Shown piece after piece: positions 4,841 through 20,165 of a stretch of 64,000 nt of DNA. Source of the DNA: an uncultured Cellvibrionales bacterium (GTDB lineage: Bacteria > Pseudomonadota > Gammaproteobacteria > Pseudomonadales > GM7GCV1); the NCBI GenBank assembly GCA_913063225.1, contig CAJXYP010000019.1, positions 1,178 through 65,177 on the forward strand. The letters are read 5' to 3'. Position numbers and translations under genes: made by a program. Position 1 is the first letter of the stretch; every line of letters begins with the position of its first letter. Below the pieces are notes generated by a model that did not search any database, was not told the DNA's origin, and saw only the letters and a program-made list of their open reading frames with translations.

Positions 4841-5414
4841 TAAATATGCGTTTCCAGCTGTACCAACCATAAATTGCGACCACAATATAGCCGAAAAACA
4901 GTGCGCTGGTTAAGTATAGCTCTCTGTCAATGTAGAGATATACGGAAACTGCGTCAATAACCACCCAATATAGCCAGTTTTCAAGGACCTTACGCGTCAC
5001 CATGTAGGTAGCTATTACGGCGGCCCAAGTCGTCAGAGAGTCAAGAAAGGGCAGAGCGGCTTGGGTATAGCGACTTAACAGAATTCCGGAACTGATCGCC
5101 AAGATGACTATCAGCGAGACGCTAATCAAATGCTGTTTAAGGCCCCAGGAGTGAATCTTCTGCGGGCTGTGATCTTTTGACCCTTTGGTCCATTGCCTCC
5201 AGCCGTATACCGCCATAAATAGGTAGTAAACGTTCAGGGCCGATTCCATCAGTAGGCTTACATCCCAGAATAGCCAAGAAAATATTGCAGTAGAAAGTAG
5301 AGCCGCGGGCCAGCACCAAATGTTCTCGCGGGCAGCAAGCACCACATAGGCAATGCCGAAAACCACAGCAATAGCTTCCCAGGGGCGTGCAAGTATCAGG
5401 TCGACGAGTAGCAT
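4821..5414 (-). CDS. pnuC: PnuC-family vitamin transporter (PnuT-type thiamine transporter by context)
   Basis: 197 aa, multi-TM, with conserved Trp-rich PnuC segments (WCWPAALLS, YGWRQW, YGWYSWKR). Confidence 0.8.
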   Translation of the reverse strand: MLLVDLILARPWEAIAVVFGIAYVVLAARENIWCWPAALLSTAIFSWLFWDVSLLMESALNVYYLFMAVYGWRQWTKGSKDHSPQKIHSWGLKQHLISVSLIVILAISSGILLSRYTQAALPFLDSLTTWAAVIATYMVTRKVLENWLYWVVIDAVSVYLYIDRELYLTSALFFGYIVVAIYGWYSWKRIFNETTDQ

Positions 5415-5427
5415 GGGGGCTTCTATT

Positions 5428-5691
5428 TTAATCGTTTAAAACTGAGTGCTCTCGATCCAGATTAAGGAACTTGGTTACCAAAGACATCGGCACGCCAGAT
5501 TCGAAAGGTATTTTTAAACACTCAGTGATGGACGACATCACTAGGTCGTATTCGCCGTGAATCTGGGTGCTCATGGTATTGGTTTTTAGGCTCAAACCTT
5601 CAATTTTCTTAAGCGCATTTATAAAGCCAAGTATTTCGTCCACATATTCACTTTGCAGAGGATACAGGCTCATTTCTACAGATATTCGCAT
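5428..5691 (-). CDS. MTH1187/YkoF-family thiamine/HMP-binding protein
   Basis: 87 aa; the MRISVEMSLYPL... ferredoxin-like fold signature of the YkoF/DUF77 family. It lies within the TPP-riboswitch operon. Confidence 0.7.
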   Translation of the reverse strand: MRISVEMSLYPLQSEYVDEILGFINALKKIEGLSLKTNTMSTQIHGEYDLVMSSITECLKIPFESGVPMSLVTKFLNLDREHSVLND

Positions 5692-5749
5692 ATTATGTTC
5701 CTCGGTTATGGGTAAAAGCCGGAACCTGGGTTCCGGCTTTCAAAAAGAC

Positions 5750-7909
5750 TTATAGACGATATTGGATACTTAGACCAATTTCTCTTGGCTCACCAAATTG
5801 AAAATAGTTATTTGTTGCATAGCCATCTCTAGGATCATTTCCAAAAGAACCGAAGCCTCGAGTTGTATAGTCCTCGTTGGTTAGATTGCGGCCCCACAAT
5901 GACACTTCGATGTCGTCGCTGGCGTTCCATATCATGCGAGCACTAAGGAGACTGTAGGCTTCAGCTTCAGCAAAATGTCGATTGGAGAAACGGAACTGAT
6001 CCTTAGAGTCCACAGAAAGCCAGAAACCTAAATTGTCAGAGAACGAATAATCCAGGCTTAAGCTGAGTTGATACTCTGGCGACTGAGCCAAAGGTTCTCC
6101 TGACATATCGTAAGGCACAACGGATCCGCCAATATCGACAGCATTGATGTGGCTAAAGCTGTCATATGTGCCAAAAGCAGTTCGCATTAGCCCCAAGCTA
6201 GTATTGACACTGAATCGATCAGTTACAGGCCAATATGCTTCTGCCTCCATTCCGTAGCTGTGTGCCTCTGCGGCGTTATCTACAAAGTCTTCAAAGGAGC
6301 ATGCGCCAACACCGATCGGGCAGCTTACAAGAGACTGCTTTACTTGAGCGTCGCGGCGATCCTGATAGAAGACAGAGATCTGACTGACTACCCCGGAGTC
6401 CAAAGTGCTCTTAAGGCCGAATTCATAGTTCCAAAGGGTTTCTGTTTCATATTCCAGAGGAATAACCGCGCCACGAGAAACGTTCACACCGCCAGTTTTA
6501 TAACCGCGAGCAATACGAATATAGGTGAAATATTTGTTGAGTATTTTTACTTCGTAGGTGAGATGCCCGCCCAGCAGGGTCTCGTCCGTATCAGTAGATT
6601 GGGCGAGGCTGTCACCATATTCAGAGCTGAAGTTTTCCGCTCTTAGGCCTAAGCGAATTTGTGTGGCAGTGGTGGCCGTAGGTAGCGTTATTTCTCCATA
6701 AACCGCAGTATTTTGCGACTCATATTCGCTTGAAAAAGAGGTCGTAGATTCGGGCGTAAAGGGGTCTGAATATTTGTAGTTTCGGGTGAGGTCGGCATTC
6801 TGGCTTTTTCCGTACAATCCTAAAATCCAACCAATGCCATTGGGTGGCACCTCTGAGATTAATCTCAGGTCCAAGGTATTCGTATCGGTATCGCGCAGGT
6901 ATTTATCGAAACTTGAGTACCAATAGCAATCCGACGGATCAGCGCCACCACATAAATCTAAATTGGCCCAGTCTTCGTCAAAACTATATTCTGAGTCAGA
7001 TTGAGCTGTGGAAAGTAGGACATCCAGATCGAGCGTGCTGGTTAATTCCAGAGATGCATCGCTCGAGAGCGCAAAAGAATCTAAGGCATCAGTGCCGGGT
7101 TCATCTGAAATTGTTTCGCGCAGGTTGTCGAGTGTGAAGCTGTCATAACCGTTGTCGATATCCAGTTTTATTGCAGTAAAGCTAACGTCTAAGACATCAG
7201 AAACTTCCCAATCAAGCTTTCCTCGAACCGTTAGTTCATCTATATTTTGAGTATCATCACGGCTCAAATAAACGTTCTCAACAAAACCATCGCTTTTGGT
7301 ATTTTGGATAGCCAGTCTTCCATTGAACGAATCCGCCAATGGACCACTTAATACTAGGCCAAGATTTGAACTGTCGGTGGTACCCTCATTTCCAGATATA
7401 TCACCAATGCCGGCTGTAAGTATTACTTCCGGACTATTCGATGGGTCATTGGACTCAATGTTGATCATACCCGCCAATGCATTAGCTCCGAAAAGGGTTC
7501 CCTGTGGGCCACGTAAAATCTCCACCTGATCGATATCAAACAAAGTGGCTGCAGCTCCTAAAGTGCTGTAGTCGATACCATCGATGATCAAGCCAACTCC
7601 CGGATTGAGTGGGTCAATAAATTGGCTGCGTTCTCCAATACCGCGGATTTGAAAAAATCGGCCGCGCGATGCGCCTGAGGAATAGTTTAGATTTGGTGTG
7701 CTAGCCAAAGCTTCAGTGAGGAAGTTGGCGCTGCGGTTGGAGATCTCATCAGCAGATATAAGGCTAATGCTGTTTGGGGTTTCCATCAGATTGATGGGGC
7801 GAAACTCTGCCTGAATAATAATGTCTTCGATATAGACTTGTGCGGGAAGGTAGGTGCTAAAGCCTATTAAGCTTAAACAGCCAATTTTTGCGGTGTTTGA
7901 TAAGTTCAT
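5750..7909 (-). CDS. TonB-dependent outer-membrane receptor
   Basis: Signal peptide, plug-domain motifs (FFQIRGIGERSQF, VEILRGPQGTLFGANA) and a long beta-barrel; 719 aa. First gene after the TPP riboswitch. Confidence 0.9.
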   Translation of the reverse strand: MNLSNTAKIGCLSLIGFSTYLPAQVYIEDIIIQAEFRPINLMETPNSISLISADEISNRSANFLTEALASTPNLNYSSGASRGRFFQIRGIGERSQFIDPLNPGVGLIIDGIDYSTLGAAATLFDIDQVEILRGPQGTLFGANALAGMINIESNDPSNSPEVILTAGIGDISGNEGTTDSSNLGLVLSGPLADSFNGRLAIQNTKSDGFVENVYLSRDDTQNIDELTVRGKLDWEVSDVLDVSFTAIKLDIDNGYDSFTLDNLRETISDEPGTDALDSFALSSDASLELTSTLDLDVLLSTAQSDSEYSFDEDWANLDLCGGADPSDCYWYSSFDKYLRDTDTNTLDLRLISEVPPNGIGWILGLYGKSQNADLTRNYKYSDPFTPESTTSFSSEYESQNTAVYGEITLPTATTATQIRLGLRAENFSSEYGDSLAQSTDTDETLLGGHLTYEVKILNKYFTYIRIARGYKTGGVNVSRGAVIPLEYETETLWNYEFGLKSTLDSGVVSQISVFYQDRRDAQVKQSLVSCPIGVGACSFEDFVDNAAEAHSYGMEAEAYWPVTDRFSVNTSLGLMRTAFGTYDSFSHINAVDIGGSVVPYDMSGEPLAQSPEYQLSLSLDYSFSDNLGFWLSVDSKDQFRFSNRHFAEAEAYSLLSARMIWNASDDIEVSLWGRNLTNEDYTTRGFGSFGNDPRDGYATNNYFQFGEPREIGLSIQYRL

Positions 7910-8150: not shown

Positions 8151-9428
8151 CTATCGGTTGATCGCTCGCCAAGCAATATCACGTCGCAAAGTCATACCTT
8201 TCCAGCTAATACTGTCGGCCAATTCGTATGCCTTTTGTTGGGCTTCAGCGACATCAGCACCTAGGGCGGTTGCACAAAGAACCCGACCTCCGCTGGTAAA
8301 CACTTTTCCGTCGGTCTCAACCGTGCCCGCCTGGAATATTTTTTGGTCGGCGTTTTCAATATCGCCCAGCCCGGAAATCTCCCGGCCTTTCTCATAACTT
8401 GCCGGGTAGCCCTCGGCAGCCAATACCACTCCAACAGAAGCTCGACTATCCCATTGCGCTTCCGCTTGGTCTAGCTTGCCATCAAGAGCTGCATTGCAAA
8501 GAGCAACAAGGTCGGATTGAAGCCGCATCATGATCGGCTGTGTTTCAGGGTCGCCGAAACGGCAGTTGTATTCAATTACCTTGGGTTCGCCCTGAGCGTT
8601 AATCATCAATCCAGCGTAGAGAAATCCTGTGTAGGGCATTCCTTCAGCAGCCATGCCGGCTAAGGTCGGGTAAATAACCTGACGCATAACTCGTTGATGG
8701 ATTTCCGGAGTAACCACAGGCGCGGGTGAATAGGCTCCCATGCCGCCAGTGTTAGGGCCAGTATCGCCTTCTCCAATTCGTTTGTGGTCTTGGCTGGTGG
8801 CCATAGGCAGTACATTCTTGCCGTCGGCAATAACAATAAAACTGGCTTCTTCGCCATCCAAAAACTCTTCAATCACTACACGGCAACCTGCTTCACCAAA
8901 GGCGTTACCGGATAACATGTCTTGCACTGCGTCTTCCGCTTGCTTAAGAGTTTCTGCAACAATTACGCCTTTACCTGCTGCCAGACCGTCGGCTTTTACC
9001 ACTATTGGCGCACCCTGTTCTTGCAAATAGGCCAATGCGGGGTCGACTTCCGTAAAGCTTTTATAAAAGCCGCTAGGAATATTATGTCGTGCTAAAAAGT
9101 CTTTAGTGAAGGCTTTGGACCCTTCTAGCTGCGCTGCTTTAGCCGATGGGCCAAAGCAGCGTAGACCGGCTTTTTTAAATGCATCAACAATGCCTTCAAC
9201 CAAGGGCACTTCAGGGCCAACGATAGTTAAACCAACCGCATTGGACTGAGCAAAAGAAATCAGACCATCAAAGTCGTCGCCTGAGAGATCAATGTTTTCG
9301 ATGCCAGCTTCGGCTGCAGAACCGGCATTACCCGGCGCAACATATACTGTTTCAACCAAAGGGCTTTGAGCCGCTTTCCAAGCCAGTGCGTGTTCGCGGC
9401 CGCCTGAGCCAATCACAAGTACATTCAT
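8151..9428 (-). CDS. purD: phosphoribosylamine-glycine ligase
   Basis: MNVLVIGSGGREHALAWK N-terminus and an ATP-grasp body; 425 aa. Confidence 0.95.
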   Translation of the reverse strand: MNVLVIGSGGREHALAWKAAQSPLVETVYVAPGNAGSAAEAGIENIDLSGDDFDGLISFAQSNAVGLTIVGPEVPLVEGIVDAFKKAGLRCFGPSAKAAQLEGSKAFTKDFLARHNIPSGFYKSFTEVDPALAYLQEQGAPIVVKADGLAAGKGVIVAETLKQAEDAVQDMLSGNAFGEAGCRVVIEEFLDGEEASFIVIADGKNVLPMATSQDHKRIGEGDTGPNTGGMGAYSPAPVVTPEIHQRVMRQVIYPTLAGMAAEGMPYTGFLYAGLMINAQGEPKVIEYNCRFGDPETQPIMMRLQSDLVALCNAALDGKLDQAEAQWDSRASVGVVLAAEGYPASYEKGREISGLGDIENADQKIFQAGTVETDGKVFTSGGRVLCATALGADVAEAQQKAYELADSISWKGMTLRRDIAWRAINR

Positions 9429-9477
9429 TTGCTTTGTATCTTTGTTATTTATATTTCAGTTAAAGGAGTTCTGCCGC

Positions 9478-11064
9478 TTAGTGGCGGAAATGCCTCATGC
9501 CGGTAAAGATCATAGCCATTTGATGCTCATCTGCCGCGGCAATTACCTCGTCATCCCGAATAGAACCGCCGGGTTGTATTACGCAGGCCACGCCCGCGGC
9601 TGCGGCGTTATCTATGCCGTCACGAAAAGGGAAGAAGGCGTCCGAAGCCATTGCGCTGCCTTCAACTTGAAGACCAGCCTGCTCTGCTTTAATTACTGCA
9701 ATACGAGCTGAATTTACGCGGCTCATTTGGCCTGCACCAACACCAATAGTTCTCAAGTTATTGCCGTACACAATGGCATTGGACTTAACGAACTTAGCAA
9801 CTTTCCAGGTAAACAACGCATCTTTAATTTGATCTTCTGTTGGCTGTTTTGCACTGACAATTTTTAGATCAGATTCGCCGATTACACCGGTATCTCTGTT
9901 TTGTACCAGCAATCCGCCGGTAACTTTTTTGAATTCAAATCCAGTGCTCTCTACCTGCCACTCACCGCAGGCCAATACGCGAACATTTTTCTTTGCCGCG
10001 GTAATTTCTAATGCGGCTTCGCTGATACTTGGCGCGATTATTACTTCCACAAACTGCCTGTCTACTATGCTTTTTGCGGTATCGGCATCAAGTTCGCGGT
10101 TGAAGGCAATAATCCCACCAAAAGAGGATTCAGGGTCGGTAGCAAAGGCTTGCTCGTAGGCGGTGCCAATATTCTCAGCGACGGAGACCCCGCAGGGGTT
10201 GGCGTGCTTCACAATTACACAGGCTGGTTGGTCAAATTGTTTTACGCACTCCAAGGCCGCATCGGTATCAGCAATATTGTTGTAAGAAAGCTCCTTGCCT
10301 TGAAATTGCTTGGCAGTAGCAATGCAAGCTTCAGCGGGGTTGTGCTCGCGATAAAAAGCGGAGCTTTGGTGCGGGTTTTCGCCGTAGCGTAAATCTTCAC
10401 CCTTAAGGAATTGAAGGTTAAAGGTTCGAGAGAAGTTCTCGCTTCCGCCAGTAACTAATTTGCCGAAATGGTTGGCGATAGCTCCGTCGTAAGCTGCCGT
10501 ATGTTCATAGGCTCGAATTGCCAAATCAAATCGTGTCTCATAGCTAAGCTTGCCGTCGCATTCTGCGAGTTCAGCCAATACACGAGAGTAGTCAGAACTG
10601 TTTACCACAATAGTGACGTCTTTGTGGTTTTTGGCTGCAGCGCGCACCATAGTCGGGCCGCCAATATCTATATTTTCCACAGCATCTTCGAGGCTACAGT
10701 CGGGTTTTGTTACGGTAGCTTCAAAGGGATAAAGGTTAACGATTACCATATCGATAGCGTCTATGCCGTGATCTTGCATGATCTGATCGTCAATACCTCG
10801 ACGACCTAGAATTCCTCCATGAACTTTAGGATGCAGCGTTTTTACACGACCATCCATCATCTCGGGGAAGCCCGTATAATCAGAAACCTCAGTTACGGCT
10901 ATTCCAGCGCCTTTGAGAAGTCGGTAGGTGCCGCCTGTGGATAGCAGCGCTACACCGGTGTCGGTTAGCTGCTTGGCAAAATCTTCAATCCCAGTTTTAT
11001 CAGATACGCTGATTAGCGCGCGGCGAATAGGCTTTAGTTCGGTTTTGGTGTCAGAGGAGGTCAT
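9478..11064 (-). CDS. purH: bifunctional AICAR transformylase / IMP cyclohydrolase
   Basis: [23 protein letters not shown] and the C-terminal MRHFRH; 528 aa. Confidence 0.95.
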
Positions 11065-11344
11065 ATTGCTTTAGCTTTTTTCTCAGTGTACCGCGGTTAA
11101 GACCTAGTATTTCAGAGGCCTGGCTTTGGTTATTGGAAGTATGTTCAAGGACAGATTTCAGCATGGGCGCTTCAACTTCTTTGAGCACAAAGTCGTATAG
11201 GTTTGAGGGGGTTTCTTCGCCCAGATGTTCAAAGTACTGTTCTAATGATTCGGTTACGCACTGAGACAAAGCCATATATTTTTTTGACTTTCCCTTTTTG
11301 CTTGCCTTTTTGACACCTAAGTCAGTCTTAGATTTTTTACTCAT
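11051..11344 (-). CDS. fis: DNA-binding protein Fis
   Basis: C-terminal [28 protein letters not shown]; follows dusB as in the dusB-fis operon. Confidence 0.9.
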
Positions 11345-12387
11345 GCGGCCATCATTCTATTTACAGGTTCCTGTGTTGCTAGTTGCTGAATAAATTCAGA
11401 TTGCGCTTCGGTGCTTTGAAGACTATTGAAGTCTTTGCGTTGAACTCCTGAGTCATCCATACGTTCAAGATACCAACCCATATGTTTACGTGCGATACGC
11501 ATACCTTGCAGATCACCATAGAGCTGATGAATTCCCTCAAGGTGAGTAGTCATAGTTTCGAACTGTACTTTTAATGAGGGTGTAGAAAGCAATGAAAAAG
11601 TTGAAGACGCTATGCCAGATTGGATTCCAGATTGAGTTTTAGATGGGATTGTAGCGTCTAGGTATTCGCGAATTTGCTGGAATATCCAGGGCTGGCCCAG
11701 AGCACTCCGACCGATCATCACTGCCGCGGCGCCAGTCTGCTTTAGCACCGCTTCGGCTTGTTCTGGTGTGCCAATATCTCCATTGGCAATTACCGGCATA
11801 GCTACTTTGGCTACGATTTCGGCGATGGTGTCGTACTCAGCCTGACCCGAAAATTTGCATGCTCTGGTTCGGCCGTGCACCGTTAAGGCCTGAATTCCTG
11901 CCTGTTCTGCAATTTCGGCTATTCGCAGCCCGTTCTTAGCTTCTGTACTCCAGCCGGTTCGTGTTTTTAAAGTAACGGGAACCGATACTGCGTTTACAAC
12001 GGTATTTAAAATATCTTCAACCAAGGCTTCGTCTTGCAGGAGGGCACTTCCTGCGGCGCGTTTACAGACTTTTTTGGCCGGGCAGCCCATGTTGATATCA
12101 ATCATTCCGGCGCCCAACTGTTCGCAGGCCATGGCCGCATCAGCGAGCATTTTCGCGTCATAGCCAGCTATCTGAACTGGACGGGGAAGTGGATCTTCTG
12201 ATTGAGGCAAACGGGTTTTGGACTTATTGCTAGTCCAGAGATCGGTTTGTGATGTCAGCATTTCAGAATAGGTGAGGGCTGCGCCCCAATGTCTAGCCGC
12301 CTGTCTCAGAGGCAAGTCGGTAATGCCAGCCATAGGTGCCAATAGCACTGGGGCATCAATTGTGTAGGGACCGATTGAGAAAGACAT
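11341..12387 (-). CDS. dusB: tRNA-dihydrouridine synthase B
   Basis: LAPMAGITDLPLR, the DINMGCPAKKV catalytic Cys loop and HGRTR; 348 aa. Confidence 0.9.
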   Translation of the reverse strand: MSFSIGPYTIDAPVLLAPMAGITDLPLRQAARHWGAALTYSEMLTSQTDLWTSNKSKTRLPQSEDPLPRPVQIAGYDAKMLADAAMACEQLGAGMIDINMGCPAKKVCKRAAGSALLQDEALVEDILNTVVNAVSVPVTLKTRTGWSTEAKNGLRIAEIAEQAGIQALTVHGRTRACKFSGQAEYDTIAEIVAKVAMPVIANGDIGTPEQAEAVLKQTGAAAVMIGRSALGQPWIFQQIREYLDATIPSKTQSGIQSGIASSTFSLLSTPSLKVQFETMTTHLEGIHQLYGDLQGMRIARKHMGWYLERMDDSGVQRKDFNSLQSTEAQSEFIQQLATQEPVNRMMAA

Positions 12388-12452
12388 TGGTTTTTAAGTC
12401 GTTTTTGAAGTGCTGAAAAAGGTGGGTAATTCTACGCCAGACCCACGGCAGG

Positions 12453-13703
12453 TCAATTCAAATAAAGCAGATTAAATTCATAACTTATGGCCGAAGCTCC
12501 CGGATCATAAAGTTCCATTTCGATCTGTATTCGCTGGAACGGCTGAAGTAGCGTTCGTCCGGCAGTTTCGGAACGCAAATATTCCTGCGGACTAAACCTT
12601 CGAAGGGAAATCTTTTCGCCTCGTAGGTCAGTAAAAGCGAGCTCAATATGTGGAAATCGCTGGGATAATTCGGCTCTGTTACGCAGCTCGACCTGAACTG
12701 CTAGCGAATTATTATATTCCGTTGAGGGTCGAACTATGCCGGTTACGGAAAGCAGAGAAAGGTCTTGAAGTACCAATTTTCGGCAGGGCAGCAGGACACA
12801 AAAATTAATCGAAACCCGATTATAGAAATCAATCTCTCTTAACGAAGCCGCCTGCCAGTAAAGGCTCTGGGCTAAAAGGGCGACAAACAATGTTGAAATG
12901 CAAATAGTCCAGGGAGCGCTAATTTTTTTATAAGCTTTACGGTTTTTCGATCCGACAAATAGCTGTTCTGCGAGTTTTTCTTCCGCTGCCTGTTCCGGCT
13001 CGACAAGATCTGATAAGAGCGGTTCTTCTTCAGAACCCGGGCGAACAGCAACAACCGATTCCCATGTATTTTCGGATTCGGTTTCTGAAGGCTGGTGCGT
13101 ATCTGATGATGCATCAGATAAATTATCTTCAAGGCCGGCGAAAGATGCTTTCAAAATATCGGAAATTTCCTGATCTGCCTCATCTTGATATTCATCAGCG
13201 GAAGCGACTATCGTTTCATCTTCTGATGAAGCTTCCGATTCCCTGTGTTCTTCGTCTAAAGCTTCTTTCTCTGGGGTTTCCTCATACTCATACTCGTCAT
13301 CGTCATCGTCATCGTAACCGCGATAAATAGACTCCATTTCGTTTTGATAAATAGAATCTTCAGGTTCGGGTTCATCAGGACTAGCTATGCCCGATGCAAT
13401 TTCTGCCCCGGCATCACGTTCTTCAACATCAGAAAGCTCCTGATCATCAGCTAGAATATCGTCGTCATCCGCGCGCGGGTTAAAAAACTCCGGTTCAGGT
13501 TCGGTCTCTTTAGTTGCTGCCGCTTCAGTAGCTTCACCTCCAAATAAAGGTTTTTGCTCAATAATAAAATGTTCCAGCGCATCAAATACTTTCAGGCATC
13601 CACCGCAGCGCACAGCACCATTTGCCGCTTCCAGCTGAATAGGCCCCACATGAAACGAAGTCTTGCAGTGAGGGCATTGTGTTACTGAACCGTATTCACT
13701 CAA
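12453..13703 (-). CDS. zinc-ribbon (MJ0042-type) protein with an acidic linker, one TM segment and a DUF3426-like C-terminal domain
   Basis: CPHCKTSF...CGGCLKVF zinc ribbon, a long D/E-rich stretch and a TM segment. It occupies the position between prmA and dusB that DUF3426 proteins occupy in Pseudomonas-type genomes. Confidence 0.75.
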   Translation of the reverse strand: MSEYGSVTQCPHCKTSFHVGPIQLEAANGAVRCGGCLKVFDALEHFIIEQKPLFGGEATEAAATKETEPEPEFFNPRADDDDILADDQELSDVEERDAGAEIASGIASPDEPEPEDSIYQNEMESIYRGYDDDDDDEYEYEETPEKEALDEEHRESEASSEDETIVASADEYQDEADQEISDILKASFAGLEDNLSDASSDTHQPSETESENTWESVVAVRPGSEEEPLLSDLVEPEQAAEEKLAEQLFVGSKNRKAYKKISAPWTICISTLFVALLAQSLYWQAASLREIDFYNRVSINFCVLLPCRKLVLQDLSLLSVTGIVRPSTEYNNSLAVQVELRNRAELSQRFPHIELAFTDLRGEKISLRRFSPQEYLRSETAGRTLLQPFQRIQIEMELYDPGASAISYEFNLLYLN

Positions 13704-13760
13704 CGGTACTAATACTCTTGAATGTAATTGATAGAGGCGCCCTTAAGTCTGAATGGTGGT

Positions 13761-14645
13761 TTATGATCGGATTCCCGTAATTCTAAGCCAATCTTCGCTT
13801 TGTTTAACTGCTAAATTATTAAACCAAGGTTGGTAGGCACCCAGAATTTCTTGCTTTTGGCTGTGCAATATTCCCGAAAGGCAGAGGTGTCCGCCATTTT
13901 TGACCAATCCGGCAATAGATTCGGCAAGCTCTACTAGGGGGCCTGATAATATGTTTGTCAGCAGAATATCGGCTGGTTCTCGCTCAAATGAAGCGGGCAG
14001 ACAGATATGATATTGCGTTGCATTCACTTGATTTCTTTCAAGGTTTTTCTTGGTTGCTGTTAGGGCTTGGGGGTCGATATCTACAAAGGAGCCATAGCTA
14101 GCGCCTCTAAGAAACGCTGCAATGCCAAGCACTCCGGTTCCGCAACCGTAATCGATAATATTCTTATTTAAACAATCATTTTCTACTACCCATTCAAGAC
14201 AAAGGGCTGTGGTTGGATGGGTGCCCGTTCCAAAGGCTAGACCCGGGTCTAAGAGTAAAGTGGTTGCTCCGGGCTCTGCTATCGGTTCAGTTACCTTTTC
14301 AGCGTATACCCAAAAGTTATCGCCAAAGCACATGGGCTGGAAGTGTTCCATCCATTCTGTTTCCCAAACCCTGTCTTCCAATATTTCCCAGCGGAAATTC
14401 GATTCGGACAGGTTGCAAAAACTTAACAACGCTTTCTGGATCGCTGCGCTGTCAACATCGCTGTCAAATAGACCGACCAGAATAGGGTCCGGCCAGATTG
14501 GCGGTTGATCGGGGTCTGGTTCGTATATTGGAGAGTCTTTAGCGTCGATGGTGGTAACAGATAGCGCACCAACCGAAAAAAGAGCGTCTTCAATAGATTG
14601 ATACTCTTGAGCCGTTGTTTCGACGCGCAGCTCTAGCCAGGGCAT
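13761..14645 (-). CDS. prmA: ribosomal protein L11 methyltransferase
   Basis: MPWLELRV start (internal ATG at 14645), PGLAFGTGTHPTT and DYGCGTGVLGIAA SAM motifs. The upstream 46 codons of the listed ORF overlap the accB stub and are probably not translated. Confidence 0.9.
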   Translation of the reverse strand: MPWLELRVETTAQEYQSIEDALFSVGALSVTTIDAKDSPIYEPDPDQPPIWPDPILVGLFDSDVDSAAIQKALLSFCNLSESNFRWEILEDRVWETEWMEHFQPMCFGDNFWVYAEKVTEPIAEPGATTLLLDPGLAFGTGTHPTTALCLEWVVENDCLNKNIIDYGCGTGVLGIAAFLRGASYGSFVDIDPQALTATKKNLERNQVNATQYHICLPASFEREPADILLTNILSGPLVELAESIAGLVKNGGHLCLSGILHSQKQEILGAYQPWFNNLAVKQSEDWLRITGIRS

Positions 14646-14664
14646 GAGGTTAAAAGACCCTGAC

Positions 14665-14835
14665 CTAAGCTTGAGAATCAGGTTTTTTTCTAGGGCCCTC
14701 TCCAGCGCGAAAGGGCACGCTATCCTGAGTAGCACGTGTGAGGCGAACGGATTCGTCGCCCTCACGTATCTCAATTTCACCAATATTGGACTCTTCCAAT
14801 ACTTCGATAAGCTTTTTAATCTTTCGGATGTCCAT
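14665..14835 (-). pseudogene. accB: 5' stub of accB (biotin carboxyl carrier protein); the biotinyl domain and accC are absent
   Basis: The minus-strand translation [35 protein letters not shown] matches the AccB N-terminus almost residue for residue. It then reads 21 unrelated codons to a TAG at 14665-14667, and prmA starts 20 nt later. Confidence 0.75.
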
Positions 14836-14850
14836 CGAGCGTGTAGTTCC

Positions 14851-15288
14851 TTATTTGGCTAATTGGTCTATGGCAAAGTCGAGCGCATATTCGTAACCTT
14901 TGGGCCCGAAGCCACAAAGTACCGCCTCAGCAATGCCAGAGAAGTAGGAAAGATGCCTGAACTCTTCACGTTGGTGAACATTGGAAATATGTATTTCAAC
15001 AAAAGGGATAGCAACCGCTGACATGGCGTCGCGGATAGCAACGCTAGTATGAGTAAATGCTGCCGGATTAATCAGTATGTAATCCACTTTATTTTGCGCC
15101 GCTTGGATCTTGTCCACCAGCTCGTGCTCGGCGTTGCTTTGGAAGCTCGTCAGGCTGTGGCCGGCGGCTTTTGCGGCTGAGGCCAGGCTCTCATTTATTT
15201 GTTCCAGAGTTACCGCCCCGTATACGTCGGGTTCGCGCGTACCCAAAAGGTTTAGATTGGGACCGTGAAGTACAAGAATATTAGCCAT
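14851..15288 (-). CDS. aroQ: type II 3-dehydroquinate dehydratase
   Basis: [32 protein letters not shown] and [12 protein letters not shown]; 145 aa. Confidence 0.95.
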
Positions 15289-15404: not shown

Positions 15405-16469
15405 TTAGGCTGAATGGCCTACCCAGTGGTTATCCCAAAAGATCCCCGAAGGAATATTCTTGCCGGCACGGGAAACCTCGCCAACGCCGCTACTTAACCA
15501 CCAGTTTCCATCCACACTGGTGGCAGCGGAAATATCCAAAGAATGCACTGATTCAATCGGTTGGCCTAGATGATCCCAGCGGCCATAAATATGCCCCTGT
15601 GGTGAGGTAGCTACAACTTCGGCATCAGATACCGCGACGCTGGCTATATAACCGTTAAAGCTTGGCCAGCCGGATTTAGGTTCATCAGCTACCTTCCATC
15701 CCTTGGGCGCTGAATAGCTATAGAGCAAGGCATCTTGGGTGGGGGCCGGGTCAGCAAGCTGCATCCCTACCCATAAGGTTTCTCCGTCAGAATCTAGATG
15801 GCGGGCACTTAAATTACTGCCAGGCGCAGGAACAAAGGAGCTTATTGAAGATACTTCTGGATCAAAAAATACTAAACCGGACTCAAAGTTATCGGCGTTC
15901 AAAATGGTGCGGCCGACGGATTGCCATCCGCCAACGGCAATAACTATCTGGTTAGATATCGATAGCATTTGGTGGGGGCCTAGTCCGGCGATTGAAATCT
16001 GCTTGGGTGGTAGGGATAAGTCCGCCAGTCTGTATCTCAATAGAATTGATTCGCTTGTCTCGATCGGAGAAGCAGTAGCCCAAAGTTCGTCTTGGCCCTC
16101 TTTATTGATTTGGAATAGGGCGTGGCCCTCAAATATCAACCCTTCCGGGACCACAATCTGGCCTAGGTCTTTACCGTCCGCGGGACTAAATAGCTGAATA
16201 AACTTGCCAGGACGTCGTGCCACAACCGCACCGACGGATAAATCATCGCTTAGGCATAGTTCGTGCACCCGAGCAGGCGTATCTAGCTTCCAAACCAGAT
16301 CGCCTCTCTGGTCGATACAGGCGGCGCCATAAGTATTGCCATAGCTGCGAAATCCACCATACAGGCGAAGAGCTGGCTCGCCAAATTCACCAAGGGAGCA
16401 GGCGCCTAGTTGCAGTGCCGCTAAACTAGTACCACTTAACTTAATAAATTCGCGACGCTTAAGCTGCAC
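15405..16469 (-). CDS. DUF1513-family periplasmic beta-propeller-like protein with a Tat signal
   Basis: Twin-arginine leader MQLKRREFIKLSG...LGAC. Last gene of the imelysin / DUF1111 cluster. Confidence 0.8.
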   Translation of the reverse strand: MQLKRREFIKLSGTSLAALQLGACSLGEFGEPALRLYGGFRSYGNTYGAACIDQRGDLVWKLDTPARVHELCLSDDLSVGAVVARRPGKFIQLFSPADGKDLGQIVVPEGLIFEGHALFQINKEGQDELWATASPIETSESILLRYRLADLSLPPKQISIAGLGPHQMLSISNQIVIAVGGWQSVGRTILNADNFESGLVFFDPEVSSISSFVPAPGSNLSARHLDSDGETLWVGMQLADPAPTQDALLYSYSAPKGWKVADEPKSGWPSFNGYIASVAVSDAEVVATSPQGHIYGRWDHLGQPIESVHSLDISAATSVDGNWWLSSGVGEVSRAGKNIPSGIFWDNHWVGHSA

Positions 16470-16472
16470 TTT

Positions 16473-17465
16473 TTAGTCGCCATCAAAATTGTTAAAACCA
16501 ATCAAAATGCCAAAGTCTTGCGCAAGATCAGTTTCTAGAAAATTTGCCAGTTGCGTAAACAGGGTTTGCAAATCATCCAATGTTTCAGGGTTTTGTTGAT
16601 GGGCAGCTAAGTTTTCAAATTCGGCCAATATGTTATTCGCGTCCTGCGCATAGGCTTGAAGTTGTATTTCGTTTTCCGTAGATATGGTTGATGCCTGACC
16701 GGTATGCTCGAGCATTGCCGCTAGGCTTATTAAAGATTGCTGGTATACCAGCCAGGTATTTTCCGACCGCCATCCCTCCGCCAGGTAACTTACCCAAAGC
16801 CCTTCTTCATTCCGACTTTGTCGTAAGTGGGATTCCAAGCGCGAAATTTGTGAGTAGAGCAGGTTAAGGGCAATTGAGCGCCCGGCAATTACATCTGAAT
16901 CAAGCGTCCATTCATCGAGTACTACCGGCGCAGCTTGATGATACTCACGCAGGGTAGTTACATCGGCCAAATATACCTCGCTAACCGCTACCAAGGTGGT
17001 GCAACGCTGGGCTTGAGTTAAGCCTTCTTTATAGAGCAACCACTCAAGGGCTGGGATGCCTTTCTCAGCGGCAATTAGCTGGTTGTAAGCGTCTGATGTT
17101 AAAGGCTGGCCGGATTCAGCGCGTGCACCCAAGCGGATCTCGGTCATATTGCGCTTGTCTGGCCAAAAGTAGAGAGAGAACGACAGGGCTTGCTCGTCGA
17201 TTGCCTTATAAGGATAGCCATTAATATAAGCCCATTGGCCCAGTGTTTCTGTGAAGGCCGATCTTGCCGCATCAATATCCGCTGATCCCGCGCAATAGTT
17301 CTGATTAATTGCGAGCATCTGGCCGGAATTTTCTAGCCATGTATCAGCTTGGGCATTAGCCCAGTTTTTCCAGTGCAGAGAGAGAGAAGCCTCTTTTGAT
17401 GTGCAGGCAAAGAGTACTGAGGCCATCGCGGCCGCGATTATTATGCGGTAAGCGTTTTTGTACAT
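16473..17465 (-). CDS. imelysin-like (peptidase M75 fold) lipoprotein
   Basis: Lipobox VLFAC, helical composition and conserved cluster position. Confidence 0.7.
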   Translation of the reverse strand: MYKNAYRIIIAAAMASVLFACTSKEASLSLHWKNWANAQADTWLENSGQMLAINQNYCAGSADIDAARSAFTETLGQWAYINGYPYKAIDEQALSFSLYFWPDKRNMTEIRLGARAESGQPLTSDAYNQLIAAEKGIPALEWLLYKEGLTQAQRCTTLVAVSEVYLADVTTLREYHQAAPVVLDEWTLDSDVIAGRSIALNLLYSQISRLESHLRQSRNEEGLWVSYLAEGWRSENTWLVYQQSLISLAAMLEHTGQASTISTENEIQLQAYAQDANNILAEFENLAAHQQNPETLDDLQTLFTQLANFLETDLAQDFGILIGFNNFDGD

Positions 17466-17466
17466 T

Positions 17467-18894
17467 TTAGAGAGAGTCTAAAAAGAGAAGCAGCGAGTTT
17501 AGTTTATCTTCGGAAAGTTGCGCTACTTCATTTTTTGCCACAGCCGCTTCGCCGTCGTGCCAAAGTATGGCTTCTAGTGCATTGCGGGCGCGTCCATCGT
17601 GCAAAAACTGGGTATGGCCGTTAACGGTTTGGTACTTGCCCAAACCCCAGAGAGGAGGCGTTCTCCATTCTTGTCCAGTCGCGTCAAAGTCAGGCCGGTT
17701 ATCCGCCAAGCCTTCACCTAAGTCATGCAGTAGCAGGTCCGTATAGGGGTAGATGGTCTGATTGCTTAGGGCTGGGCTGATTCCAACTCCAGTTTGCCAG
17801 TTAGGCGTGTGGCAACCTGCACAGCCAACATCGGTAAATACTTGTTCTCCCGCTACCACTTCCGGATCCATTGCGTCGGTCCGAGCAGGAACCGCAAGGT
17901 GGCTGGAATAAAAGCTCACCAGTCCTAATAGCTCATCGCTGATTTCGGGGTAGCCTCCGTCAGGAGCCTGTACACAGCTAGTTTGCGCCGGCATGCAGCT
18001 TTCGTTGGGTGACAGGCTAGAGGTAATGCCAATATCACCAAAAAACGCAGCCGCACTTTGTTGTTCTACGGTTGGTTTACTGGCTTTCCAGCCAAATCGG
18101 CCCAATACCAACTCTTCGTTGATGCCGTCCCAAACTGTATTTGGCCTGCCTGAGATACCATCCATGTTTGTATCTTCAGCATCGGCATTGGCGAGAATAT
18201 ATTCGGCTGGGATAGCTTCCAGTAATCCTAGCCCGATCATGGCAGGGGCTACCCTTGGACTTATCATTAAGTCAGGGTGCATTGGGCCGTAAGCCAAATG
18301 AGTCAGCTCAATAAGGGGCTTACGCAGCTCTACCACTCGGCCATTAGCCATTTCGAAATTTGAATATTCGTATTCCCACTGAATACGTGCCTCGGGTTCT
18401 ACGCCAGCTACAGAGAAGTCCTGTAACTGATCTCCGTAAGTCGGTTCGGCAATTACTCCATCCGAGGGAGATCTAGGGTTGCTATCGGTTTCAGGAATAC
18501 TCAATCGAATCAGGGTTGAAACAGCTTGCGCCTGACCCGGTAGAGGCGGATGACCTCGACCATCTTTGATATGACAGCCCTGACAGCTATTGGTATTGAA
18601 TAGAGGGCCCAGGCCGTCTCGTGCGGTGGTCGTTGCTGGTGCCGCTATCCAGGGGTTCCGAAAGAAACTATTGCCGATACTAAAATTCATACGGCCCTCA
18701 AGATCGAGATTGGAGGCCGGTTGCGAAAAGGCATTTGCGTCCTGAAACTGCGTAGTAGTAGCACCACCGGGGAGGCTCGGGTCCGCAAAGGCCGGTGCGG
18801 TGGATAATGAACTAACAAGAGCTGTCGTACCAACAATCGCAAACTTTCGGAAGCGATGACGCAGCAAACGAAAGTTCAGGTATCGAAATTGCAC
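17467..18894 (-). CDS. di-heme c-type oxidoreductase (DUF1111, cytochrome c peroxidase-like)
   Basis: Two CxxCH motifs (CQGCH and CAGCH) and a signal peptide; 475 aa. Confidence 0.8.
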   Translation of the reverse strand: MQFRYLNFRLLRHRFRKFAIVGTTALVSSLSTAPAFADPSLPGGATTTQFQDANAFSQPASNLDLEGRMNFSIGNSFFRNPWIAAPATTTARDGLGPLFNTNSCQGCHIKDGRGHPPLPGQAQAVSTLIRLSIPETDSNPRSPSDGVIAEPTYGDQLQDFSVAGVEPEARIQWEYEYSNFEMANGRVVELRKPLIELTHLAYGPMHPDLMISPRVAPAMIGLGLLEAIPAEYILANADAEDTNMDGISGRPNTVWDGINEELVLGRFGWKASKPTVEQQSAAAFFGDIGITSSLSPNESCMPAQTSCVQAPDGGYPEISDELLGLVSFYSSHLAVPARTDAMDPEVVAGEQVFTDVGCAGCHTPNWQTGVGISPALSNQTIYPYTDLLLHDLGEGLADNRPDFDATGQEWRTPPLWGLGKYQTVNGHTQFLHDGRARNALEAILWHDGEAAVAKNEVAQLSEDKLNSLLLFLDSL

Positions 18895-18896
18895 TC

Positions 18897-20165
18897 TTAG
18901 AAATGTCCTTCCGTGTTTGCCGCAAGTGAAGTTAGCCCAAGGGCAATGGCTGAAGCTTCGATAGCTCTTGTTTGAACTACCAAGGCATCAATAGCATTTT
19001 GGATCATTGCTGTGCCTTCTGAATTTCCAAAAGATATTAGCTGATCAAAGGCTACGCCAGACTGTGCTGAATCAACTATTAGTCCAATAATTTGAGTCGT
19101 GCTGTTAAGCGCCGCCGTTAACTCCACAGCAAGAGCCGGGTCGTGTTTCTCCAATAGCTCAACGACCGATAAACCGCTGCTAAGGTTTCTAGTAAAGTTG
19201 GACTGGCCCATCAATACGTTTGATATGCCAATTTGATCGTGCAAAAGAGTGAAGTGCGTATTGTCAGAGAAACAATCGTGCTCGTCTTCGGGAGAGTTAG
19301 CGTAGAGAGCAACCTTCATACGTTCGCCCGCCAATTCACCTAGGGAAAGGCTACCGACTCCAAAAAGAATACGACGCAGCTGCTCCTTGGCATACAGTGC
19401 CGAAAATTCATTGCTATAGCTGTCCGCGGATGTAGCGTCCCATTGGGTAATAACCCATTCAAGATCTTCAATTAGCAGCTCCGTTACCGACTGCAGATAG
19501 TCGCGTCGGCGGTCGCAATTGCCATTTGTGCACTCAGTTGTATCAAGAGCAAAGTCTGTAATCGGGCGGTTGCCAGCTCCCGGACCCGTACCGTTTAAAT
19601 CTTGGCCCCAGAGTAGAAATTCTATGGCATGCCATCCAGTAGCAACATTCGCTTCCGTGCCGCCCAGTTCGTTTAGGCTAGCTAGGAGCTCAGAGTTCAA
19701 ATCGGTTAGGTCGAGAGTTTGAGGCCCAAAGCTCAAACTGGTATTCGCAATCAGGTTTGCCTGGCCGACAGGATTTCCGAGCTCATAGAAATAGTTGGTG
19801 TGGTCTACGTAGTCGATAAATCCTTCATCCAAAGGCCATGCATTCAGCTGAGGTTCCCAGTCATCAATAATTACATTGCCAAAACGGAAGGCTTCGATCT
19901 CAGCGTAAGGTTTGCGCGCTTCTGTCCAGCTATTTTTTGCGGTCTGAAGGCTAGCTTCGCTTGGAGATGCCAAGAAGGCTTGAACGGCATTTTGCATGAC
20001 AAGAGCTTCATTCAAAGATGCACCGAAGGCTTCTGAGGCGAGTTCCAGATAGCGTTCGCCAACGGATTCAAGTTCAGAATCTGTAGGTGCAGCCTGACCA
20101 GCCGGACTGAAGGATAGGCATATAGCGGCAAGCGCGCTTAATAGAGGAAGGTTCTTAATAGGCAT
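18897..20165 (-). CDS. imelysin / IrpA-like peptidase M75 family protein
   Basis: Signal peptide, GWHAIEFLLWGQD (HxxE-type imelysin motif) and cluster context. Confidence 0.75.
   Translation of the reverse strand: MPIKNLPLLSALAAICLSFSPAGQAAPTDSELESVGERYLELASEAFGASLNEALVMQNAVQAFLASPSEASLQTAKNSWTEARKPYAEIEAFRFGNVIIDDWEPQLNAWPLDEGFIDYVDHTNYFYELGNPVGQANLIANTSLSFGPQTLDLTDLNSELLASLNELGGTEANVATGWHAIEFLLWGQDLNGTGPGAGNRPITDFALDTTECTNGNCDRRRDYLQSVTELLIEDLEWVITQWDATSADSYSNEFSALYAKEQLRRILFGVGSLSLGELAGERMKVALYANSPEDEHDCFSDNTHFTLLHDQIGISNVLMGQSNFTRNLSSGLSVVELLEKHDPALAVELTAALNSTTQIIGLIVDSAQSGVAFDQLISFGNSEGTAMIQNAIDALVVQTRAIEASAIALGLTSLAANTEGHF

Follow-up and report, generated by a model that had tools for sequence, protein, structure and literature searches.

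The closest described counterparts of the gene discussed here are AccB, or biotin carboxyl carrier protein (BCCP), an N-terminal fragment of AccB, and an AccB homolog of Shewanella. A preprint describes residues 1–30 of BCCP as an alpha/beta/beta motif and proposes that inside active acetyl-CoA carboxylase (ACCase) tubes the N-termini of about ten BCCPs come together as a beta-barrel in the lumen, where they would anchor the mobile biotinyl domains (PMC11160672). Residues 1–68 of Escherichia coli AccB alone are reported to repress accBC transcription (James and Cronan 2004, cited by PMC11160672 and PMC3896788). Shewanella oneidensis is described as lacking AccABCD and using AccS, a single-chain ACCase of 1517 amino acids (aa), and it keeps an orphan AccB homolog, SO_0511 (PMC4793157). 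The DNA analyzed here (the window) is a stretch of 64,000 bp from contig CAJXYP010000019.1 of an uncultured Cellvibrionales bacterium. Between its aroQ and prmA genes, where other gammaproteobacteria have accB and accC, lies a 56-codon open reading frame (ORF) that encodes a free-standing AccB N-terminal domain. This ORF, called the stub below, is almost certainly a selected coding gene.

The stub occupies bp 14665–14835 on the minus strand (56 codons and a TAG stop at 14667–14665, from the ORF list and the sequence). In a tblastn search of the window, residues 1–36 of E. coli AccB match it with 72% identity (E = 5e-12), in agreement with the preliminary description of this DNA, in which the first 36 codons were read as the AccB N-terminus and the biotinyl domain and accC were said to be missing. 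Neither a biotinyl domain nor any further match to E. coli AccB was found by tblastn in the 64 kb window, and accC was not found there either, the sole weak AccC match being the ATP-grasp domain of purD. The NCBIfam BCCP model TIGR00531 gives the window stub 36 bits against a cutoff of 115.2, over profile positions 1–37 only, and five family members score 33–38 bits over positions 1–37 to 1–43 of 156, below the cutoff. Pfam gives no match to the stub, including to the biotinyl domain PF00364, and its only sequence match in the PDB is the E. coli BCCP N-terminus in the biotin carboxylase (BC)-BCCP complex 4HR7. An alignment of 24 family members has 16 invariant positions, and E. coli AccB carries the same residue at every one of them. 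Codons 1–35 (bp 14731–14835, minus strand) make up the AccB N-terminal domain as judged from identity to E. coli AccB, codon counts, the invariant positions and structure prediction.

The similarity does not end there. Codons 36–44 (TQDSVPFRA; bp 14704–14730, minus strand) include a DS[V/I/L]PF motif at residues 38–42. Stubs of the window, P0022 and P0025 types all conserve this motif, which lines up with the start of the AccB linker in full-length proteins (SRHSENMVPIP in P0413, NSGTTQYFTA in L017). Homology thus reaches to about residue 44, and of the last 20 codons, all of them first taken to be unrelated to AccB, only about 12 are lineage-specific. These last codons, 45–56 with the stop (bp 14665–14703, minus strand), form a variable hydrophilic tail that is predicted to be disordered. 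An origin of the tail in the 3′-end of accC or in the accC-prmA spacer could not be traced by DNA similarity to L017, which is too diverged (about 65% in aroQ).

No full-length AccB with a stub-type N-terminus is present in the collections searched. In a metagenome scan for the clade-specific words IEVLE[ED]SN and IGEIEI[RH]E, six of six loci were 55–60 aa stubs in the same slot and none was full length. When 1.84 billion cluster representatives were searched exhaustively with phmmer, the family representative P0017 (59 aa) was recovered at E = 4e-18, and after it came only generic N-termini of AccB, none above 55 bits. The top phmmer match, P0375 (2344 aa, E = 4.5e-34), was rejected as a homolog, since it consists of 32 exact copies of a 73 aa unit whose weak matches are summed; it is probably no real gene but an ORF running through tandemly repeated DNA, and it shows why rankings by summed score call for caution. 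In the databases the stub ORFs are unnamed or missed, or are named "biotin carboxyl carrier protein" (JGI names), and no earlier account of AccB N-domains occurring naturally as separate proteins was found.

The loss of the biotinyl domain and accC from this locus is genuine and shows up in independent assemblies. ENA assembly ERZ534234 (NODE_1, 1.98 Mb) shares 12.2 kb with the window at 100% identity, and a 13 kb contig of JGI metagenome 3300027704 shares 7.4 kb, likewise at 100%. The identical 56 aa protein (P0001) is encoded on at least six contigs from independent assemblies, a 2.33 Mb contig that carries it also appears in the protein-cluster table, and more than 15 other contigs have stub versions of 53–60 aa. 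Two short "AccB" calls, P0028 at locus L017 and P0047 at locus L031, were excluded from the family as frameshift artefacts in which the rest of accB and accC (even prmA) lie downstream.

Relatives were found through a PrmA-anchored scan of the GTDB species representatives, and more came from stub-encoding contigs and the metagenome scan. Comparison with close relatives, proposed as a check in the preliminary description, shows the same architecture in L005, L006 (a Porticoccaceae metagenome-assembled genome, MAG) and L007, whose PrmA proteins are 68, 65–66 and 51% identical to that of the window and whose stub ORFs are 57, 59 and 56 aa long, respectively; the aroQ-stub-prmA order recurs in L018–L020 and L028. 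In a large protein database there are about 25 clusters of window-type homologs of 55–60 aa. A second group of homologs has 48–65 aa and includes the P0063 cluster (53–56 aa), which is found on hundreds of marine contigs including those of Tara Oceans. In the Tara-abundant P0063 lineage the stub adjoins aroQ and is followed by leuS-lptE-holA instead of prmA. The marine contigs L010–L013 (Tara and ENA) represent a second, AT-rich lineage, environmentally very abundant (hundreds of contigs), in which the stub (bp 10001–10171) has a 0 nt gap to aroQ and is followed by leuS; their host is possibly a streamlined pelagic gammaproteobacterium.

In L014–L016 the order is DUF1513-stub-prmA. Here aroQ is missing and only truncated genes lie upstream, and a 60 aa stub ORF is kept before prmA. 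In this P0022 lineage (L014, bp 9194–9929; L015, bp 5381–6116) the imelysin-type cluster is down to fragments of Peptidase_M75 (107 aa) and DUF1513 (149 aa); the window counterpart (about bp 15405–20165) consists of Peptidase_M75-DHOR-Peptidase_M75-DUF1513. The locus looks like a hotspot of reductive evolution from which the stub is exempt. In the relatives the upstream spacer is 0–30 nt in most loci and 71 nt in L014, the downstream spacer is 5–26 nt, and the aroQ stop and stub start are joined in an overlap-type TAAATG in L007 and L010. No accC was found by tblastn in any of the stub loci fetched. PrmA identity among the stub lineages is 43–88%, a range that overlaps their identity to E. coli PrmA (41–44%). 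The 35-residue N-domain is 60–100% identical to the window-type stub among the relatives and 51–100% identical across all stub pairs; for comparison, the N-domains of the full-length AccBs of E. coli and L017 are 83% identical.

Synonymous and nonsynonymous differences were counted by the Nei-Gojobori method in codons 1–35, which contain about 24 synonymous and 81 nonsynonymous sites. The window and L005 differ there by 24 synonymous changes (saturated) and no nonsynonymous change, the window and L006 by 25 and none, and the window and L014, a lineage with 49% PrmA identity, by 19 and one (a proportion of differing nonsynonymous sites, pN, of 0.012). In the same genome pairs pN is about 0.15 for aroQ and 0.21–0.37 for prmA, and from codon 36 to the end of the stub it is 0.27–0.59 between lineages. 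Since about 77% of the sites are nonsynonymous, under neutrality the chance that none of 24 changes is nonsynonymous would be about 5e-16, and because the synonymous sites are saturated the constraint must be on the protein and not on the DNA or RNA. Purifying selection on the stub protein is stronger than that on the flanking housekeeping genes. When the stub was assessed as a pseudogene, its frame was found to be intact and its length to be 53–60 aa in all lineages, and the pairs compared have 0–1 nonsynonymous against 19–25 synonymous differences in codons 1–35. The early suggestion that the retained peptide is still expressed thus has strong, if indirect, support from purifying selection at the protein level.

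An RNA element at this position was considered and rejected, as there is no Rfam match and no conserved fold and the synonymous sites are saturated; folding z-scores of the whole ORF vary among lineages between -3.3 and +1.05. In the window, an inverted repeat that is imperfect, GTGAGGGCGAC...GTTCGCCTCAC (bp 14740–14767, minus strand; about stub codons 24–33), folds at -17.9 kcal/mol. It recurs only partly in the relatives, is not conserved, and seems to result from the EGDESVRL codons rather than being a conserved RNA element.

The gene upstream of the stub in the operon, aroQ (bp 14851–15288, minus strand), encodes a type II 3-dehydroquinate dehydratase (Pfam PF01220 on an identical protein), and its 3′-end reads GCC AAA TAA. 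The spacer between it and the stub is 15 nt long (bp 14836–14850, minus strand), and a Shine-Dalgarno-like AAGGA that overlaps the aroQ stop lies 12 nt upstream of the stub ATG (14835). The sequence confirms in these respects what was first reported, an ORF of 56 codons with an AAGGA that starts 15 nt past the aroQ stop, and places it on the minus strand. It was also correct that prmA follows closely, with a gap of 19 nt (bp 14646–14664, minus strand) and not the 20 nt given at first. The prmA gene (bp 13761–14645, minus strand) encodes ribosomal protein L11 methyltransferase (Pfam PF06325) with the MPWLELR start common to its homologs. No promoter or terminator was found between aroQ, the stub and prmA, so the stub is a member of this operon, and it is probably translationally coupled. 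Intact aroQ-accB-accC-prmA loci are present in other gammaproteobacteria (L017 and L031), as expected of an arrangement that had been called conserved, and the window locus is about 1.7 kb shorter than these.

The gene order in the window is DsbD_N, imelysin-type genes, DUF1513, aroQ, stub, prmA, a DUF3426 zinc-ribbon gene, dusB, fis, purH and purD, which is the gene order of Pseudomonas minus accBC. The DUF3426/zinc-ribbon protein encoded 3′ of prmA (window bp 12453–13703, minus strand) has a very long acidic low-complexity insert with many E/D/S runs, for example DDDDDDEYEYEE; it is 416 aa long in the window and 259 aa in L014, and the length of the insert differs widely among relatives. The fis gene lies between dusB and purH at about window bp 11051–11344 (minus strand); it encodes 97 aa, with an HTH_8 match in the ENA locus of identical sequence. 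As called in L001, it overlaps dusB (4 nt) and purH (14 nt). Such tight gene packing around fis typifies streamlined genomes; here the GC content is 46.5% and the largest contigs are 1.98–2.33 Mb long.

AlphaFold2 (AF2) was run on the family alignment and predicts a confident helix at residues 3–15, followed by a lower-confidence beta-like stretch to about residue 34 (predicted local distance difference test, pLDDT, about 87 for residues 1–20), a pattern that matches the alpha/beta/beta motif of BCCP residues 1–30 (PMC11160672). In the predicted disordered tail, residues 45–56, pLDDT is below 50. A free N-terminal fragment of AccB has documented activity, and the stub could thus be its natural equivalent. 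The N-terminal 30 or so residues of AccB are also said to be required for the AccB-AccC complex, a result that is ascribed to Choi-Rhee and Cronan in 2003.

The explanation we favor, and to which we give somewhat better than even chances as a whole, is that the stub is a genuine translated AccB N-domain mini-protein that was kept after the loss of accBC and acts in trans on the supply of ACCase. On this reading the ancestral aroQ-accB-accC-prmA operon lost accC altogether, together with the accB parts for the linker and biotinyl domain, and the AccB N-domain stayed behind as a free-standing protein. This peptide would fold or assemble as the self-associating alpha/beta/beta module of BCCP (helix 3–15 and a beta hairpin) with a disordered charged tail after it. 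It no longer carries biotin, and would do in trans what the E. coli N-terminal fragment does, sensing and regulating the supply of acetyl-CoA carboxylase, by binding a biotin-carboxylase partner, by repressing transcription through the transcription machinery, or by both. The catalytic carboxylase would then be encoded elsewhere, as a relocated accBC or as a single-chain enzyme of the AccS type.

Several points weigh against this explanation. We infer translation of the stub from selection only, and the AF2 monomer model is of moderate confidence (mean pLDDT 70, predicted template modeling score 0.46). There is no accBC operon beside the stub for it to autoregulate. AccB is described as having no DNA-binding motif, and how it represses transcription is given as still open, in the account of PMC11602165. 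The tails of the window, L007 and P0063 types are unlike one another, so that either the tail is unimportant or the truncations were independent. Finally, accB, accC and accS were not located in any stub-bearing genome by a retrieval limited to candidates sharing words with the query.

In that retrieval the best 120 matches were listed from the 8000 candidates that shared most words with the E. coli query. With E. coli AccA, AccB, AccC and AccD as tblastn queries, the window and all fetched loci yielded only the stubs and the intact L017 locus. A composite query of E. coli AccD, A, C and B (1228 aa) found, among the matches listed, only carboxyltransferase (CT) or BC fusions of 675–1026 aa, none on a contig of a stub genome. 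Doubling the composite (2456 aa) retrieved AccS-type proteins of 1500–1645 aa, in which the carboxyltransferase region is N-terminal, the BC region lies at about residues 1050–1500 and the biotinyl domain at about 1540–1600. Many marine MAGs with the labels Pseudomonadales, Gammaproteobacteria or Ca. Azotimanducaceae encode such proteins, and so do Oceaniserpentilla and Psychromonas. No AccS-type protein could be tied to a stub-bearing contig among the matches listed and the members of 10 AccS clusters, and given the word-limited retrieval this absence says little either way. AccS-type proteins have no AccB-N-like segment of their own (at best 3–5 bits, against 68 bits for E. coli AccB). The neighborhood of one accS-type gene (L027) shares no synteny with the window, and the dnaE/accA and folC/accD neighborhoods are not in the window. 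The AccS-type protein of L027 (P0254, bp 10001–14899) has EAFKIF at the biotinylation motif where P0229 and P0278 have EAMK(Q/I)F, its Pfam Biotin_lipoyl match is below threshold, and its gene adjoins those of a 613 aa ketoacyl synthase and a thiolase. Pseudomaricurvus and Exilibacterium belong to the Cellvibrionales and are close to the Porticoccaceae. Both genera are listed as having accS (PMC11602165), and by analogy the functional carboxylase of the present lineage may not be accBC at all.

That analogy is the starting point of the strongest competing explanation, an unlikely one in our estimate, in which the stub is an accessory subunit of an AccS-type ACCase whose AccC-like BC domain it binds or whose oligomerization it nucleates. 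It differs from the explanation favored above only in the partner. The Shewanella precedent of AccS in place of AccABCD with an orphan AccB kept, the accS genes of the two cellvibrionalean genera (PMC11602165) and the AccS-type proteins of many marine MAGs make it attractive, as do the lack of an AccB-N-like segment in AccS and the absence of stub-type N-termini from full-length AccBs in the collections searched. On the other hand, the AccB retained by Shewanella is full length and not a stub, binding of an AccB N-domain to the BC domain of AccS is purely hypothetical, and the word-limited retrieval tied no AccS to a stub-bearing contig or genome. A split AccB, with the N-domain made here and a protein of linker plus biotinyl domain made with accC elsewhere, the two reassembling into a functional BCCP, is improbable. 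The truncation does fall at a domain boundary (about residue 44), and the clade-specific N-terminus occurs on no full-length AccB in the collections searched; however, if the N-domain acts as a tether through its covalent linker, as has been proposed (PMC11160672), a noncovalent split would lose the tether, and the variable, disordered tail offers no obvious docking element. No N-terminally truncated BCCP was identified, and no search was aimed at one.

Slightly less credible still is the idea that the ORF is only a translational-coupling device, delivering ribosomes to prmA (or leuS) with a peptide that is irrelevant. The downstream spacers are indeed very short (5–26 nt), the Shine-Dalgarno sequence of prmA is weak or absent, and promoters and terminators are absent between the genes. 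Such a device would need only an open frame, yet the amino acid sequence has hardly changed at all against a background of saturated synonymous sites, its conserved residues coincide exactly with the ones that real AccB conserves, and the downstream gene varies by lineage (prmA or leuS). Translational coupling may be an additional role of the stub, but it is not the explanation for it. The preliminary description had also considered a deletion scar with functional accBC copies elsewhere, and the biotinyl domain and accC are in fact lost from the locus; the remnant, however, is under selection. A neutral scar or pseudogene that has not yet decayed would fit the loss of about 1.7 kb relative to L017 and L031 and the scores of the family models, which lie far below the BCCP cutoff. 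It is very improbable nonetheless, because frame and length are intact over 43–68% PrmA identity with 0–1 amino acid changes against 19–25 synonymous changes in 35 codons, because the stub has outlived independent rearrangements of both its neighbors, and because the saturated synonymous sites exclude a recent horizontal transfer of the segment. The least probable explanation, with a negligible chance, is the collapsed assembly (or a sequencing artefact) that was also raised at first. It is refuted by the identical sequence in the independent ENA (12.2 kb) and JGI (7.4 kb) assemblies and by the recurrence of the architecture in other species, across projects and assemblers. Apart from the a priori oddity of the locus, its one attraction is that frameshifts do make short accB calls elsewhere (P0028/L017 and P0047/L031), but such true artefact loci retain the remainder of accB and accC downstream, whereas here prmA begins after 19 nt. 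Neutral scar and assembly error are both effectively excluded.

Returning to the free-standing N-domain mini-protein acting in trans, its conservation suggests that the AccB N-domain has a job of its own. A bolder version, which we offer tentatively and consider less likely than its negation, is that the N-domain does something essential or highly advantageous for which neither biotin nor a separate AccC is required, that AccS replaced the multi-subunit ACCase in abundant marine lineages (Porticoccaceae/SAR92-like bacteria and the Tara-abundant clade), and that selection there trimmed accB to a regulator or assembly factor of about 55 aa for the initiation of fatty acid synthesis. If that is so, the stub would be a natural minimal model for the autoregulatory activity of AccB, and if the lineage uses single-chain AccS it would illustrate a stepwise path of ACCase replacement, with AccB retained whole in Shewanella but reduced to its N-domain here. 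In any case, a natural stand-alone N-domain that is frozen by selection across deeply diverged and environmentally abundant marine bacteria shows the domain to be of value in itself. The mechanism by which AccB autoregulates accBC through this domain, which was recently also proposed to make up the core of ACC filaments, has been open for about 20 years, and the stub provides a minimal system of about 55 residues in which partners could be sought. In addition, a BCCP label on stub ORFs would wrongly credit their genomes with a BCCP in metabolic reconstructions.

Compared with AccB/BCCP itself (E. coli b3255; TIGR00531; PDB 4HR7 chain B), the stub is alike in residues 1–36 with their 16 invariant positions, in its predicted alpha/beta/beta motif, and in its genomic slot after aroQ, which is the same as in L017 and L031. 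It differs in having no Pro/Ala linker, no biotinyl domain with its biotinylated lysine (EAMKM) and no accC next to it; it cannot carry biotin and is therefore not a BCCP. Like the E. coli AccB 1–68 fragment, it is a free N-domain without a biotinyl domain, but that fragment is engineered and acts on the adjacent accBC, whereas the stub, with about 44 homologous residues and a tail, is a natural selected gene that has no accBC beside it. Shewanella SO_0511 is likewise an AccB-derived gene that is kept without an adjacent accC in a marine gammaproteobacterium; it is full length (152 aa) with a biotinyl domain and resides in an AccS host, whereas the stub, known from its locus, lacks that domain.

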